Positions 28,084-34,304 of a stretch of 49,318 nucleotides of DNA are shown here, in pieces. Both the position numbers and the translations under genes were made by a program. The DNA comes from Myxococcales bacterium (GTDB lineage: Bacteria; Myxococcota; Myxococcia; Myxococcales; Anaeromyxobacteraceae). The stretch spans positions 1 through 49,318 of the forward strand of contig JBBQEB010000008.1 of assembly GCA_038320275.1 (NCBI GenBank), given 5' to 3'. Every line of letters starts with the position of its first letter. Positions within the stretch are counted from its first letter, which is position 1. Below the pieces are notes generated by a model. It was not told the DNA's origin, did not search any database, and was given only the letters and a program-made list of their open reading frames with translations.

Positions 28084-29673
28084 TCAGCGGGGCACCTTCG
28101 CGGCGCCTCCGGCGGCAGGCTTCGCCTCGGGGAAGCCGCGGTGGCGCATCAGCGCGCCGATGCCTGGATCGCGACCTCGGAAGGCGCGGTAGCCCTCCGC
28201 GGGATCGACCGAGTTCCCCACCGAGAACACATGCTGTCGAAGCCGGGCGGCCACCGCCTTGTCGTACGGACCGCCAGCCTCGGTGAACGCCTCGTAGGCG
28301 TCGGCGGCGAGCGTGTCCGCCCACAGGTAGCTGTAGTACCCGGCGGAATAGCCGTCGCTCGCGAAGAGGTGCGCGAACTGCGGCGTGCGGTGGCGCATCA
28401 CGATCTCGCGCGGCATGCCGAGCGCGGCGAGCGTCTCCTTCTCGAACGCCCCAGGCTCGATGGGGCGCGCGCCGGCGAGGTGGAGCTTCATGTCGACGAG
28501 CGCCGAGGAGAGGTACTCCACCGTCTTGAACCCCTGGTTGAACTTCGAGGCCCGTTCGAGCTTCTTCACCAGCTCGGCCGGCATGGGCTTCCCCGTCTTC
28601 ACGTTCAAGGCGAAGCGGTTCAAGACCTCGGGCGTCTGCAGCCACCGCTCGAGGAGCTGGGAGGGGAGCTCCACGTCGTCGCGGGAGACGTTGGTGCCTG
28701 AGAGGGTGGATAGGTGACGTTCGACGACAGCCCATGCAGCGCGTGGCCGAACTCGTGGAAGAGGGTGCGCGCGTCCGCCCAGCTCACCAGCACGGGGTCG
28801 CCGGGCTTGCCCTTCACGAAGTTGGCGTTGTTCGACACGAGCGTGACGACCTCGCCGTCGAGCCGCTCCTGGTCGCGATAGGCGGTCATCCAGGCGCCGG
28901 AGCGCTTGCCGTCGCGCGCGTAAGGATCGAAGTACCAGACGCCGACGAGCCTGCCCTTGCCATTCTTCACCTCGAACGCGCGCACGTCGGGATGGAAGAC
29001 GGGCACTCCGGCCGCGGGGGTGAAGTGCAGGTCGAGGAGCTCCCCCGCGACCCAGAACATCCCCTCGCGCAGCTTTTCGAGCTGCAGGTAGGGCTTCACC
29101 TCCGCCTCGTCGAGGTCGTACTTCTCCTTGCGGACCTTCTCCGCGTAGAAGCGGTAGTCCCAGGGCTCGATGGTGAGCTTCGCCCCCTCGCGATCGGCCA
29201 CCGCCTGCATGTCGCGCACCTCCTCGCGCACGCGGGCCACCGCCGCCGGCCAGACCGCCTCCATGAGCCCCATGGCGCGCTCGGGCGTCTTCGCCGTCGA
29301 GTCCTCCAGGCGCCAGTGCGCATGGGTGGGGTAACCGAGGAGCTTCGCCCGCTCGGCGCGCAGCGCGAGGATCTCGGCGACGACGGCCTTGTTGTCGTCG
29401 GCATCGCCATGGTCGCCGCGCGAGACGAAGGCGCGCCAGACCTTTTCGCGGAGGCCGCGCCGGGTGGAGGTCTCGAGGAAGGGCTCCACGCTGGAGCGGG
29501 TGTTCTGCAGCGCCCAGGCGCCCTTCTTTCCGCGCGACTCCGCCGCTGCGGCCGCCGACGCCCGGAACGATGTCGACAGTCCGGCCAGATCCCGTTCGCC
29601 TGTGAGGAGGACGAAGCTCGACTCGTCGGCGAGGAGGTTCTGGGTGAACCGGGTGAAGAGCGAGAAGCGGCAC
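28084..29673 (-). pseudogene. Disrupted M3 metallopeptidase (peptidyl-dipeptidase Dcp-like)
   Basis: One frame gives SLFTRFTQNLLADE...KRSGAWM...TLFHEFGHALHGL..NVTYP; another continues TLSGTNVSRD.VELPSQ...GYSAGYYSYLWA. Frameshift near 28708; N-terminal part missing. Confidence 0.88.
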
Positions 29674-30036
29674 GTGCGACCTCCGGAGTTGGGGCCGGGT
29701 TGTAACGGGAGGCGCGGCGGGGGGGCGGGTTATCGCGGCGTAGGCCAGCCGGGCTGGAGCGAGGGGTCAGAGAATGCCGTGGCATGGCGGGCAGCCCCCG
29801 GCAACCCGGGGAAGCCGCCTGCACAAGGGTCCTCGCCAAACCCGGTTCATGCGCCTGAACCAGTTTCCCCCTCCCCATGTGTCAGCGTGTGTCGCTGGTA
29901 TCCGTTCACGATGCCGGCGAGGAGCGCGTCGGCCGGGAGGCGGCTGGGCGCGACGACGGGTGGGTCGCGCCGGCGGGCCCAGGCGGGCACGTCCGTCGAT
30001 CGACTCGCAGCAATAGCCTCCCAATCAAGGTGGCGG

Positions 30037-30069
30037 TTGGTATCACCTTGGTATCACCTTGGTATGACC
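30037..30069. repeat. Three tandem 11-bp repeats TTGGTATCACC
   Basis: ttggtatcacc ttggtatcacc ttggtatgacc, ending 44 nt upstream of the HNH ATG. Confidence 0.95.
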
Positions 30070-30113
30070 GCGAGCGCAATGCCAATGTCAGACCGTCGTG
30101 TGATGTTGCTCCC

Positions 30114-31355
30114 ATGACCGACGCTCGAAGCTTCGCCCGTGAGCTCGCGACGCTCCTTCGTCGCGAGCAGGCCGCCACCGCCGAATTCCTCGCCGCACTG
30201 GCACGATTCGACGAGCGGCGCTGCTGGGAGGATCTCGGCTACACGAGCCTCTTCTACTTCCTTCACCGCGAGCTGCGCCTGTCGAAGGGCGCCGCCTTTT
30301 ACCGCTCGCAGGCAGCAGTGCTGGTGCGCCGCCACCCCGAGGTGCTCGACGCCCTCCGCGATGGGCAGCTGTGCCTGAGCAGCGTCGCTGAGCTGGCAAA
30401 GGTGCTCACTCCAGACAATCAGGCGGAGGTCCTCCCGCGCTTCTTCCACGCCTCGAGCCGCGAGGCGAAGGTGGTCGTGGCGGAGCTGCGGCCCGCAGCG
30501 AGACTCCCGCAGCGCGATGTCATGACCGTGAGACCCGACACCGCTGACGTGCGCGGCATCCCGGGGAGCGAGGTTGAATCTGCTTCTGCGATGCCCTCCC
30601 CCCTCGGCTTGGCGCCGGCCTTCGTCTCGCCGTCGCCGGACGCGGCACCTCCCTTGGCCGCGGGTGTGGCGCAAGACACTGCGTTTGCCGCTGTTGTTGC
30701 TGCTGTCCCGACCCCCGGCTCCGCTCGGGCGGCACCGCGAACGTTCCAGCCTGACGAAGTGCAGCCGCTCACCGGCGATTTGCGCCGGTTACACGTAACC
30801 GTTTCGCGCCGCGTCGTGGACAAGCTGACCGCGGCGCGCGATGCGCTCTCGCACGCGTTGCCCGACGCCAGCACGGCCGACGTCCTGGAACGGGCGCTCG
30901 ACGCCTTTCTTCTTGCCGACGCGAGGAAGAGGAAAGCCGCCGCCGATCGGCCACGCCCGCGGGGGCCGGCAGCCAGTGTGCCGGCGAGCGATCCGGTCGG
31001 TGAGGGGGGGAGGGCGTCCGCGACGCCGGACACCCGTACGTCTCGTCATGTTCCCGCCGAGGTCAAGCGCGCGGTATGGGCTCGGGACGAGGCCCGCTGC
31101 CAGTTTACCCTCGCGAACGGCGGCATCTGCGGCTCCACGCGGTGGCTGGAGATCGACCACGTCGTGCCGGTGGCGCGCGGCGGGCCGTCCACGGTCGAGA
31201 ACACGCGCCTCCTGTGCGGTCTGCACAACCAGCTGGCGGCGCGCAGGACCTTCGGAGCCGGCTGGATGCGCCACCGCGTCGAGGCGAGGAGGGGCTCGTC
31301 AGTTCAGACGCTTGAACCGAGCAGCGCACCCCATGTGCCAGGCATCGTGCTCTGA
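30114..31355 (+). CDS. HNH endonuclease with long helical (DUF222-like) N-terminal region
   Basis: C-terminal R.VP..VKRAVW.RD..RC....C....LEIDHVVP.ARGG.....N..LLC..HN; start ATG 30114. Confidence 0.85.
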   Translation: MTDARSFARELATLLRREQAATAEFLAALARFDERRCWEDLGYTSLFYFLHRELRLSKGAAFYRSQAAVLVRRHPEVLDALRDGQLCLSSVAELAKVLTPDNQAEVLPRFFHASSREAKVVVAELRPAARLPQRDVMTVRPDTADVRGIPGSEVESASAMPSPLGLAPAFVSPSPDAAPPLAAGVAQDTAFAAVVAAVPTPGSARAAPRTFQPDEVQPLTGDLRRLHVTVSRRVVDKLTAARDALSHALPDASTADVLERALDAFLLADARKRKAAADRPRPRGPAASVPASDPVGEGGRASATPDTRTSRHVPAEVKRAVWARDEARCQFTLANGGICGSTRWLEIDHVVPVARGGPSTVENTRLLCGLHNQLAARRTFGAGWMRHRVEARRGSSVQTLEPSSAPHVPGIVL

Positions 31356-31675: not shown

Positions 31676-31795
31676 CCGGGCTCGTCGCGCCACGTGAAGG
31701 GGGATCAGCCGGGCTCGTCGCGCCGCGGAAAGGAGACCAGACGGGTTCATCTGCCGCGGAAAGGGGCAATCATACGGGCTCGTTCCGGCCGGGGA
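31670..31795. repeat. Four degenerate ~33-bp tandem repeats
   Basis: Units start at 31670, 31703, 31735 and 31768 (core a.cgggctcgtc..gcc.cg..aagg), spanning two convergent stop codons. Confidence 0.8.
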
Positions 31796-33527
31796 TGGAG
31801 GGCACTTCGATCAGCATGTCGAAGGCGCCGCGCGTCGGTGGCCGGAGCGGCACCGCGAGCGGGTCCTCGCGCAGCTCGGGCGGCCCGCACACCGGGCACG
31901 CCTCGTCGCGGATCACGGTGAGCCAGACGCTCTGGAATGCGAGCTGGCCGGGCACCTCGCCGAAGAGCTGCGGGTAGAACCAGTAGTCTGGCACGGTGGA
32001 GAGGGTGAGGTAGGGCGTGCCGGCGGCGATGACGCGCTCCGTGAAGCCGGCCAGGCGCGCGCCCTCCTCGCCCGCCGAGAGCAGCGAGAGCCCGAGCTTC
32101 ACGCCCGCGCTCGCCACGTGGTGGATGTCGGCGGCGATGGCGCTCTCCCCCTGCAGGCGCCCGGAGCCGTAGTCCACCAGCCGCTCCGGGCCGCCGCTCG
32201 AGCCAGAGGTGCCCGTCGTACCCGTCGAAGCGGAGATACCGCCCCCCGTCCCCGGAAGCCGGTGCCGCGCCCCGGTCGCGCACAGGAAGCAGGGCGTTCG
32301 CTCAGGCGCGGACAGCACCACCTCCCCGCCCTCCGCGCCGGCGTAGAGCCCCACGAAGAGCGCCGGCCGGCCGCGGGCGTAGGCGAAGCGATTGAGGGCG
32401 CGCTGCGCAGCCGGGTCATCGGTCGCAGCGACGACGAGATCGGCCGCCCGGACCGCCTGGTCGAGGTCCGCCGGCGCGAGATCCTGGACCGAGCCCGCCA
32501 GGGAATCGACCCGGGCGGTGGGACTCACCGCCCGAAGCCTTCGCGCCAGCGCCTCGACCTTGAACGTGCCCACGTCGCGCGCCTCGTACACCGAGCGGGA
32601 GAGGTTCGCCCCCTCCACCCGCTCCGGGTCCACGAGCGTGAACGCTCCCACGCCGCTCCGGGCGAGCGCCTCGGCCATGTAGGAGCCCACCGAGCCGCAG
32701 CCAGCGACCAGCACCCGGCGCTCCGCGAGCGCGCGCGGGAGGATCCCGGCGCTGCGCGCGAAGAGCGCGCCGCGGTCCAAGGCAGGAAGAGCCGCGCGCA
32801 GGCCCAGGACGAGCCGCTCCTCCTCTCGATCCTGGAGCCGCCAGGGCAGCTCGAGCTGCTCCGTTCTGCCATCCCGGGTCGCAAGCACCAGCGGAGGCAT
32901 CGCCGGGTAGCTCAGCGCCGCGACGATGAGGAGCTCCATGCCCCCGGCGCCCTCGAGCCGCCCCGATGGCAGCGGGCCGGTGCCGAGGTCGGTGAGGAGG
33001 AGCTCCGGCAGCGCGCCGGGGGAAACCTCCCGCGCGGCCGCCTCGAGGTCGCGAAGGAGCGGAAGGGCGCGGACAGGGACGGGCCGGAGCTCCGCGCCCC
33101 CCTCCGCAAGCCGCCTCCCGGTGAAGAAGGACACCTTGCCCGACGGCAGCGGGAGCTCGTGCCCGGCGAGCTCGCCCGCGGGGCCACGGGTGACGATGGG
33201 CGCAAGGTAGGTGCCGAGGTGACCGTTCCTGCGCAGCCCCTCCGCCACCTCCCGCGCGTCCTGCTCCGAGGGATGATCCATCCCGGGCGGATGCGAGTGG
33301 ACGAGCCCCTTCAGCTCGAGCCCCTCCTCCCGCTCCAGCGCCTGCACGCGCCGGCCGAGCGAGGCCGAGGGGCTCCAGCTGGCCGAGCTGGAGCGCGCTC
33401 CGGGGTCCGGTTCCAGGCGGGTGACGAGCGGGACTCCCGGCGGGCCCAGCAGCGCGCCACCGCGCTCCGCCGGCGGGGCGCAGATGGCCTCCTCCACCGC
33501 GCGGAGCACCGCGTCGAGGACGGTCAC
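31770..33527 (-). CDS. JAB/MPN+ peptidase - E2/RWD-like - ThiF/E1 adenylation enzyme fusion
   Basis: N-terminus ERGG...HSHPPGMDHPSEQD (E...HxH-x7-S-x2-D); middle LSYPAMPP (YPxxPP); C-terminus VAGCGSVGS, DPERVEGANLSR, ATD, CFLC and CPVC. Confidence 0.88.
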   Translation of the reverse strand: MTVLDAVLRAVEEAICAPPAERGGALLGPPGVPLVTRLEPDPGARSSSASWSPSASLGRRVQALEREEGLELKGLVHSHPPGMDHPSEQDAREVAEGLRRNGHLGTYLAPIVTRGPAGELAGHELPLPSGKVSFFTGRRLAEGGAELRPVPVRALPLLRDLEAAAREVSPGALPELLLTDLGTGPLPSGRLEGAGGMELLIVAALSYPAMPPLVLATRDGRTEQLELPWRLQDREEERLVLGLRAALPALDRGALFARSAGILPRALAERRVLVAGCGSVGSYMAEALARSGVGAFTLVDPERVEGANLSRSVYEARDVGTFKVEALARRLRAVSPTARVDSLAGSVQDLAPADLDQAVRAADLVVAATDDPAAQRALNRFAYARGRPALFVGLYAGAEGGEVVLSAPERTPCFLCATGARHRLPGTGGGISASTGTTGTSGSSGGPERLVDYGSGRLQGESAIAADIHHVASAGVKLGLSLLSAGEEGARLAGFTERVIAAGTPYLTLSTVPDYWFYPQLFGEVPGQLAFQSVWLTVIRDEACPVCGPPELREDPLAVPLRPPTRGAFDMLIEVPSIPGRNEPV

Positions 33528-33681
33528 AGCAGGTGCCGCGACTCAGGCACAGCGCCCACCCCGGGCACCGATCCTCTCGCCCTGGCGGGCGGCCCCGTCG
33601 TTCCGCTGCTCGCCGTGGCGACCCTCCGGCTCCGCTGCTCACCTCCCGGGCGCCACCCCCGCTTCGGTCTCGACGCCCTCG

Positions 33682-33903
33682 TCACTTCACCATGCCCGGG
33701 CCGAGACACAGGCTGCCAGCGGCGAACACGGCCGGATGGATCTCCGAGAGCTGCCGCCCTTCGTCGCGCCCGGGCTCCTCGTCGCCCACCACGATGCGCC
33801 CCTCGCGATCGACGAACACACGGCGGCGGCGCGGCTCCGGCGCGGCGTCGCCGCGGGCGCCTTCGTCGAGGGCGCGGAACTGGTTCAGGCGGATGTCGGA
33901 CAT
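33682..33903 (-). CDS. Small protein (73 aa), candidate conjugated modifier
   Basis: MSDIRLNQF...RRVFVDREGRIVVG...LSEIHPAVFAAGSLCLGPGMVK; GAGGGAG RBS; start overlaps the 3' end of the E2-like gene. Function is inference. Confidence 0.68.
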   Translation of the reverse strand: MSDIRLNQFRALDEGARGDAAPEPRRRRVFVDREGRIVVGDEEPGRDEGRQLSEIHPAVFAAGSLCLGPGMVK

Positions 33904-34304
33904 GGAACGTCTCCCTCGGGCCGGGGCCCGTCGACAGCAAAGGTGCCCTGGTAGGCGCTGAAGCCGTTCGCCCACGCGACGCTGAGCGCGAAGGCCTCCG
34001 GGAGCGATCGCGTCCCCCCGCCGCCAGGGCCGAAGCAGATGCGGGCGTCGCGGAAGAGGTGCGAGGCGTGCAGGTCGAGACGGTTCCAGAGGTCGGGGCG
34101 GATCACCCGCACCTGGTAGACGCTGCCGTCGAACCAAGCGAACAGCTGGTAGAGGTCGCCCCCGGTGGTGGTCACCGGGTAGAGCCACCCCCGCGTTCCC
34201 TCCACGGTCAGCTCTCGCGTGGCCCGCGGCATGTGTCCCGCCGCGTAGGTGCGGTCGCGGCCCGAGCGCGTCATCCCGGCGAGCGCGGTGGAGAGGGTGC
34301 CCAC
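33885..34304 (-). CDS. Prokaryotic E2 (UBC-fold)-like protein
   Basis: Predicted beta-meander followed by HASHLFRDARIC (cf. E2 HPH/N...G.IC, Cys at 34035-34037) and a helix with Trp (SVAWANGF). Confidence 0.68.
   Translation of the reverse strand: MGTLSTALAGMTRSGRDRTYAAGHMPRATRELTVEGTRGWLYPVTTTGGDLYQLFAWFDGSVYQVRVIRPDLWNRLDLHASHLFRDARICFGPGGGGTRSLPEAFALSVAWANGFSAYQGTFAVDGPRPEGDVPCPTSA

Follow-up and report, generated by a model that had tools for sequence, protein, structure and literature searches.

A 73-residue open reading frame at 33682-33903, on the minus strand of the window (the whole 49,318-nucleotide stretch of Anaeromyxobacteraceae DNA that was analysed), is a genuine, conserved gene. 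It stands second in a three-gene cassette, between a gene for an E2-fold protein and a gene for a JAB-(middle domain)-E1 fusion, and we consider it probable that the three form a self-contained bacterial protein-conjugation cassette, the tag of which is a largely unstructured peptide of about 61 residues and not a β-grasp protein. A sequence-only reading of the same DNA had proposed that the JAB domain exposes a Phe-Ala (FA) end on the peptide, which the E1 then activates; sequence comparisons and a model of the peptide-E1 complex support this proposal, with the amendments given below. The features of the cassette are:

33682-33903, minus strand: candidate modifier ORF, 73 aa (ORF translation)
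33721-33903, minus strand: predicted mature modifier, 61 aa, ending Phe60-Ala61 (alignments, AF2, complex model)
31770-33527, minus strand: JAB-(middle domain)-E1 fusion, 585 aa (Pfam Prok-JAB at residues 7-97, ThiF at 266-421)
33237-33509, minus strand: JAB/JAMM metalloprotease domain, residues 7-97 (Pfam Prok-JAB, E 6e-11)
32742-33155, minus strand: middle domain, approximately residues 125-262, with a [YF]-P-x-x-P-P motif (P208 in 29/29)
31770-32741, minus strand: ThiF/MoeB-type E1 adenylation domain (Pfam ThiF, E 3.6e-33)
33885-34304, minus strand: E2/UBC-fold gene, 139 aa from a GTG, true start uncertain (alignment, AF2)

The ORF encodes a core, RRVFVDREGRIVVG, followed by LSEIHPAVFA and a 12-residue tail, AGSLCLGPGMVK; as first read, it lacks a C-terminal GG, and VFA is encoded at 33729-33721. 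The modifier is laid out as an N-terminal helix, a linker, a β-hairpin (residues 27-40), a second linker and the conserved tail LSEIHPAVFA. JAB-E1 is present in 32 of 92 genomes of the family, the genome under study included, and in 31 of these 32 the peptide is matched immediately before JAB-E1; in the sole exception (G022) the E1 is at a contig edge. Weak peptide matches in two genomes without JAB-E1 (G017 and G021; E 0.003-0.009) were taken as chance. The GC content of the peptide core at codon positions 1, 2 and 3 is 0.84, 0.48 and 0.92, and pN/pS, in uncorrected values that are meaningful only relative to one another, is 0.17 in residues 52-61 as against 0.58 in the hairpin and 0.74-1.02 across the N-terminus, linker and tail. 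Codon-position GC and the low pN/pS in residues 52-61 thus indicate that the peptide gene is coding and under selection and, together with its conserved position, rule out a chance ORF in GC-rich DNA. A Shine-Dalgarno-like word stands ahead of 29 of 30 peptide starts, as a raw count with no control. In a sample of the phylum, the peptide profile matched 24 of the 66 further family members and none of 334 genomes of other families; the named relatives of the 585-residue protein are likewise from the Anaeromyxobacteraceae, e.g., Anaeromyxobacter dehalogenans. One genome of the family, G071, has two copies of the cassette (on C4 and C5), and the peptide gene of the C5 copy is matched in two frames, as if frameshifted.

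Conservation of the peptide stops at the Phe-Ala pair, an outcome on which the sequence-only reading had made its proposal depend: V-F-A is invariant in 30/30 family loci, as are L52, S53, H56, V59, F60 and A61 in the aligned peptides, and the sequence is variable beyond A61. The gene itself stops directly after A61 in 11 of the 30 loci; the peptides of the other 19 carry tails of 2-12 residues, with Ala (15) or Ser (4) at position 62 and later positions that diverge. As both conservation and gene ends stop at FA, the mature end is Phe-Ala and not FAAG, which had been offered as an alternative and is ruled out by the occurrence of Gly at position 63 in only 3 of the 19 tailed genes and by the 11 genes that terminate at FA. 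The same boundary is found in a wider set of short standalone homologues, which were tallied after four of 89 database representatives (P0128, P0187, P0189 and P0200) had been dropped as unrelated repeat proteins. Of 82 such homologues, 77 fit the terminal motif pattern, 75 of the 77 with Ala following Phe or Trp; their tails measure 0-12 residues (0 in 12 proteins), and none stops before FA. Of 30 peptides from distant loci, however, six have another residue than Ala after the conserved Phe: five have His and one has Glu. An ordinary E1 pocket is not expected to accept such an end, so cleavage in these lineages may occur at a shifted position. In a number of sequences (L103, L110, L112, L113 and L114; P0146, P0184 and P0199) the His, Glu or Tyr that follows Phe is in turn followed by a small residue.

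Fusion and co-occurrence were counted on 55 loci retrieved with a profile of the E2. Peptide and JAB are present in all 55, and E1 was seen in 51, with the JAB part only in the other four. Record titles place the loci in Myxococcota, Cyanobacteria, Bacillota, Chloroflexota, Acidobacteriota, Verrucomicrobiota, Alphaproteobacteria and Chlorobiaceae, which we take to represent eight bacterial phyla; a single scan of viral contigs, with E2 patterns only, gave 13 pattern matches and no relatives. The peptide is fused ahead of the E2 in 27/55 loci (in the gene orders peptide-E2 then JAB-E1, or JAB, peptide-E2, E1), and is a separate gene in another 27, which are of the Anaeromyxobacteraceae type; the remaining locus looks frameshifted. 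JAB and E1 are split in 10/55, and one Akkermansiaceae locus bears both a peptide-E2 and a peptide-E1 fusion. Among the 89 representatives there are 27 peptide-E2 fusions, seven with two peptides in tandem ahead of the E2 and two peptide-JAB or peptide-E1 fusions; a fusion of the latter kind is also seen in P0117. Where the peptide is fused to E2 or E1, or is in tandem, the FA end can be released only by a cut, as is the case in Bub (see below). A conserved end that some genomes leave exposed, and that others place ahead of a tail, an E2, an E1 or a further copy, has the look of a modifier matured by a protease, and it parallels BubAB. In two proteins, P0172 and P0182, a DnaJ-like domain is fused ahead of the peptide (with or without E2), which hints at a link to chaperones; the DnaJ assignment was confirmed for P0172.

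The protease that would make this cut is well conserved, with E21, H77, H79, S87 and D90 of the JAB domain invariant in 30 family proteins and in 29/29 further loci. The motif of the middle domain may resemble that of RWD domains or inactive E2s; the domain gave no profile match to the cassette E2 and no usable match in the Atlas. In three split systems (L103, L107 and L110) the middle domain occurs both after JAB and before E1. The E1 domain has a GxGxxG loop (276-281), D300, N308, R311, K323, D370 and zinc cysteines 413/416/544/547; its ATP-site residues are invariant. It has only four conserved Cys residues, all in CxxC pairs, and its crossover loop is without Cys; the loop has instead Asp452-Tyr453-Gly454, found as DYG in 118/120 family proteins and in 29/29 further loci. 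Tyr453 was put in the crossover loop by its position in the sequence, and may correspond to Y370 of BubCD. BubCD was not among the matches of the C-terminal part of the E1 to PDB sequences.

The sequence-only reading described the JAB and the E1, both of which are there, but left out the upstream E2 gene. His82 and Cys90 of the encoded protein (HLFxDxRIC) are invariant in 29/29 aligned E2 sequences. Its AF2 model (pLDDT 83.9) has as top structural matches UEV, CBASS E2, UFC1, UBE2 and RWD domains, with middling scores (Z 7.7-7.0) and all of one fold, among them the Tsg101 UEV (Z 7.7, rmsd 2.9, 100 aligned residues) and the CBASS E2 8hsb (Z 7.6, rmsd 5.2, 118 aligned); BubB scores Z 6.5. By sequence, no usable family match was obtained in Pfam, NCBIfam or PDB sequences. 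A fused homologue has ESM Atlas neighbours with E2-CBASS PF26395 (in 17% and 94% of members; scores 0.92 and 0.91), and PADLOC gave weak CBASS E2 matches (E 0.002-0.017) for two fused homologues. In two loci (L099:2559-3374 and L100:5013-5738) the gene just ahead of peptide-E2 encodes a second E2-like protein, which lacks the catalytic Cys and is fused to DUF1232.

Is the peptide a β-grasp protein after all? Modelled alone with 96 sequences, the mature peptide forms one helix and a short hairpin (AF2 pLDDT 56.3, pTM 0.24), and this low-confidence model found no structure-search match at Z 2 or more, a result that is uninformative either way. No usable match to the peptide was found in Pfam (the Pup family included), NCBIfam or PDB sequences. 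The order helix, hairpin, tail, compared with the β-grasp topology, suits the second half of that fold, so that the peptide could be a degenerate β-grasp (a helix, two strands and the last strand, with the first hairpin missing) and the cassette a diverged system of the Type I Bub kind. One fused homologue does weakly match the SUMO-like Pfam family Rad60-SLD_2 (E 0.14, residues 9-65). Set against this, a Pfam search with an E cut-off of 2 assigned none of the 96 aligned peptides to a ubiquitin-like family, the four PDB sequence matches at E up to 10 include no ubiquitin-like chain, and the peptide linkers tolerate indels and have pN/pS near 1.

Type I Bub (operon 6E.1; BubAB, BubCD, BubE), as far as the available part of its description goes (10.1101/2024.11.21.623953), speaks for this alternative in that it shares with the cassette the peptide-E2 fusion, the JAB-E1 fusion and the loop Tyr. 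In both, modifier and E2 are fused (in 27/55 loci of the cassette; they are separate genes in the family studied here), a JAB is N-terminally fused to a ThiF-type E1 (homodimeric in Bub), there is no E3, and the E1 loop has Tyr and no Cys, which in that description is an invariant Tyr; cleavage of the BubAB precursor by BubCD is proven there (10.1101/2024.11.21.623953). The cassette differs in that its modifier ends in Phe-Ala (30/30) and not Gly and is not recognisably β-grasp, in that its E2 has Cys90 (29/29) and not Ser, and in its extra middle domain; the terminal Ala and the E2 Cys also speak against a degenerate β-grasp, which we regard as unlikely. No PF20137 (DUF6527/BubE) match was found in the genome under study, which is 90.7% complete, and in the Bub table, checked for five genera, the only Anaeromyxobacter row is an unrelated Type II E2-E1 fusion operon (10.1101/2024.11.21.623953).

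The E1 lends itself to a second alternative, in which the adenylated peptide serves a small molecule, as a sulfur carrier or a RiPP-type precursor (ThiS/MoaD- or MccB-like). MoeB, ThiF and MccB are among the proteins of solved structure closest to the E1 in sequence, and the E1 is without a catalytic Cys. Yet a Cys-bearing E2 fold is always there, often fused to the peptide, and around the 55 loci no rhodanese, desulfurase, tailoring or export gene recurs, so that we think this alternative very improbable.

The peptide was also modelled with an E1 dimer and ATP. The complex scored 0.84, as against 0.00 for the best of three controls; this mark is attained by 116/157 solved complexes and by 2/215 mismatched pairs, counts that hold only roughly here. 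The runs had at least 71% of contacts in common, with a partner pLDDT of at least 62. The modelled interface sets peptide residues 52-61 and 27-44 against E1 residues 276-281 (the nucleotide loop), 368-372, 392-396, 401-402 and 534-539; residues 59-60 contact E1 393-394 and 402, and residues 29-31 pair with the strand 534-539. The structure prediction that the sequence-only reading had suggested as a check on the E1 site thus placed the tail there, and the model supports a position of residues 52-61 in the adenylation site, although its passing may be due in part to a likeness to solved complexes of E1s with substrate tails. That the peptide is instead a pseudo-substrate inhibitor or an adaptor of the E1, with the true substrate encoded elsewhere, would suit the large predicted interface with its strand pairing, but is scarcely credible given a free FA end that is exact in 11/30 genes, disposable tails, tandem copies that look like poly-modifier precursors and the lack of any other conserved gene nearby.

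We propose that the conjugation cassette operates in four steps. First, and this step the boundary and the fusions strongly suggest, JAB would cut after Phe-Ala, shedding the tail or freeing the tag from peptide-E2, peptide-E1 and tandem precursors. Second, in keeping with the model, the E1 dimer would hold the hairpin and tail of the tag and adenylate the carboxylate of Ala61. Third, by analogy with Bub, the tag would pass, by way of an oxyester on Tyr453 of the E1 or straight from the adenylate, to a thioester on Cys90 of the E2. Finally, the E2 would ligate the tag onto lysines of its targets without an E3, and JAB could undo the bond.

Other known systems share parts of this scheme. A Phe-Ala C-terminus is a proven E1 substrate end in the CBASS cGAS of E. 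cloacae, according to the available parts of the reports (PMC10097602; 10.1101/2022.03.31.486616). Type II CBASS, as presented there, may resemble the cassette in that Cap2/Cap3 handle a substrate that is not β-grasp and has a conserved Ala/Gly end, exactly after which the CBASS JAB cuts; the fold of the cassette E2 also resembles that of CBASS E2s. The CBASS substrate is, however, a signalling enzyme (the CD-NTase) and that of the cassette a dedicated 61-residue peptide, and the fusion partner of the E1 is an active E2 in CBASS but JAB in the cassette, where the E1 also lacks a catalytic Cys. Neither a cyclase nor an effector is a recurrent neighbour of the cassette. In BilA precursors, as described in the part of the source available, a conserved terminal residue is followed by up to nine non-conserved residues that a JAB trims (10.1101/2023.09.26.559546). 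Going by the same text, BilABCD and the cassette are alike in the tailed precursor (for the cassette, trimming by JAB is predicted), the Cys E2 and the lack of an E3; in contrast, BilA is a β-grasp protein that ends in Gly, and the E1 of that system, BilD, has several domains and a catalytic Cys, which the cassette E1 does not have. The tag resembles Pup/UBact in length and disorder; in the systems compared, Pup relies on PafA and the cassette would rely on E1 and E2, and no match to the PafA-type ligase (PF03136) was found in the 90.7% complete genome. Pup itself is a largely disordered tag of about 60 residues, joined through its C-terminus, and is ligated by PafA and not by an E1 and E2. 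Thus, by analogy, the cassette may work like a conjugation pathway of the Type I Bub or CBASS style, while falling outside Bub (Ala end, Cys E2, BubE not found), CBASS, Bil and Pup.

No description of the cassette was found in the full-text literature searched, among it Iyer 2006, Jenson 2023, the Bub, Ledvina and Chambers preprints, and Kaur 2020 and 2021. None of types 6a-6e of Iyer 2006 matches it in the part of that paper available (PMC1779556), and the systems of Kaur 2020 and Kaur 2021, by the available portions of those papers, are different (Ubl-E2 plus RING).

The copy in the window is interrupted in the tail of the peptide gene, ahead of JAB-E1:

33533-33709, no strand assigned: 177-bp imperfectly palindromic dispersed repeat, MITE/REP-like (own-genome and family matches)
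33682-33720, minus strand: 12-residue disposable tail plus stop (alignment, repeat mapping)

The repeat begins 11 nt past the FA codons and its other end falls 5 nt short of the start codon of JAB-E1, so that the FA-to-JAB spacing is 253 nt here and 66-95 nt in 28/29 kin. Residues 62-64 of the tail are native, residue 65 spans the element boundary, and residues 66-73 and the stop come from the repeat. The 12 residues read as a masking tail are thus there, but most of the tail (8/12 residues and the stop) is due to insertion of the element and is not an evolved mask. The genome has 11 other matches to the repeat (140-178 bp, 80-84% identity; on contigs C51, C219, C33, C19, C6, C283, C175, C152, C63, C245 and C192), and other Anaeromyxobacteraceae genomes have many near-full-length copies; there was no Rfam family for it, no autonomous partner was identified, and a literature search gave nothing specific. 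The other copies are closely alike and are mostly followed by TAG/TAA-type triplets; because the copy at this locus is only about 81% identical to them, it is probably older. Before the insertion, the gene would have had a five-residue tail, a stop overlapping the JAB-E1 start and the spacing typical of the family, if a flanking two-base repeat is the target duplication. A hairpin 5 nt before the start codon could reduce translation of JAB-E1; the folding energy of the repeat is unexceptional against shuffles (z -1.4). The E2 of this copy lacks the C-terminal F-P-F-stop of its kin, its gene overlapping the peptide gene by 19 nt, and the E1 has a 16-residue low-complexity insert in the crossover loop that is missing from 29 + 29 aligned relatives. 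Given these three features the copy could be attenuated, though we doubt it; all catalytic residues are intact. In L054 a different insertion, of about 200 bp, occupies the same spacer (spacing 283 nt), which suggests that the junction may attract or tolerate insertions.

Across the 55 loci, no fourth gene (a target, an E3 or an effector) is conserved beside the cassette. The neighbours in the window encode AlkA, a 5'-3' exonuclease and an HNH protein (Pfam); the gene for the last (29877-31355, plus strand) follows the cassette in opposite orientation and is not a recurring neighbour. A gene with an HEFGH motif at 28084-29705 (minus strand), which we take to be peptidase M3-like, is spread over more than one reading frame and is possibly frameshifted. 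Cyanobacterial cassettes often adjoin CHAT-domain, NACHT, iSTAND and MoxR-type AAA genes, in hosts that are kin and rich in genes of these kinds anyway; one BLAST cluster is represented in 13/15 named cyanobacterial loci, with CHAT confirmed by Pfam on five proteins. Two Bacillota loci have the cassette beside a β-helix-AAA protein. These neighbours are weak pointers to a signalling role in conflict or stress, as with Bil, Bub and CBASS; we rate signalling in stress or against invaders as the likeliest function of the cassette.

To our knowledge, E1-E2-JAB cascades have been thought to require a β-grasp tag, with the CBASS cyclases as the sole exception and the chemistry of Pup unrelated. On balance we lean towards a new class of modifier, a flexible tag of about 60 residues unrelated to β-grasp proteins or to Pup. 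Its precursors would carry a tail, be fused to E2 or E1, or be polymeric, and JAB would process them at Phe-Ala, or at Phe-His/Glu in certain lineages; the tag would then be passed along a mixed relay of E1-Tyr oxyester and E2-Cys thioester, in at least eight phyla. As the cassette comprises three small genes and has culturable hosts (e.g., Anaeromyxobacter dehalogenans), all of its steps are open to direct experiment, and a Phe-Ala tag of 61 residues that comes with a dedicated ligase and protease could make a protein-ligation tool. If the proposal is true, the pairing of a Tyr E1 with a Cys E2 would link Bub with canonical chemistry, and an E1/E2 cascade acting on a short tag without a fold would add a third type of substrate; such a tag would reveal how little an E1 must recognise, and would bear on the origin of ubiquitin-type signalling.
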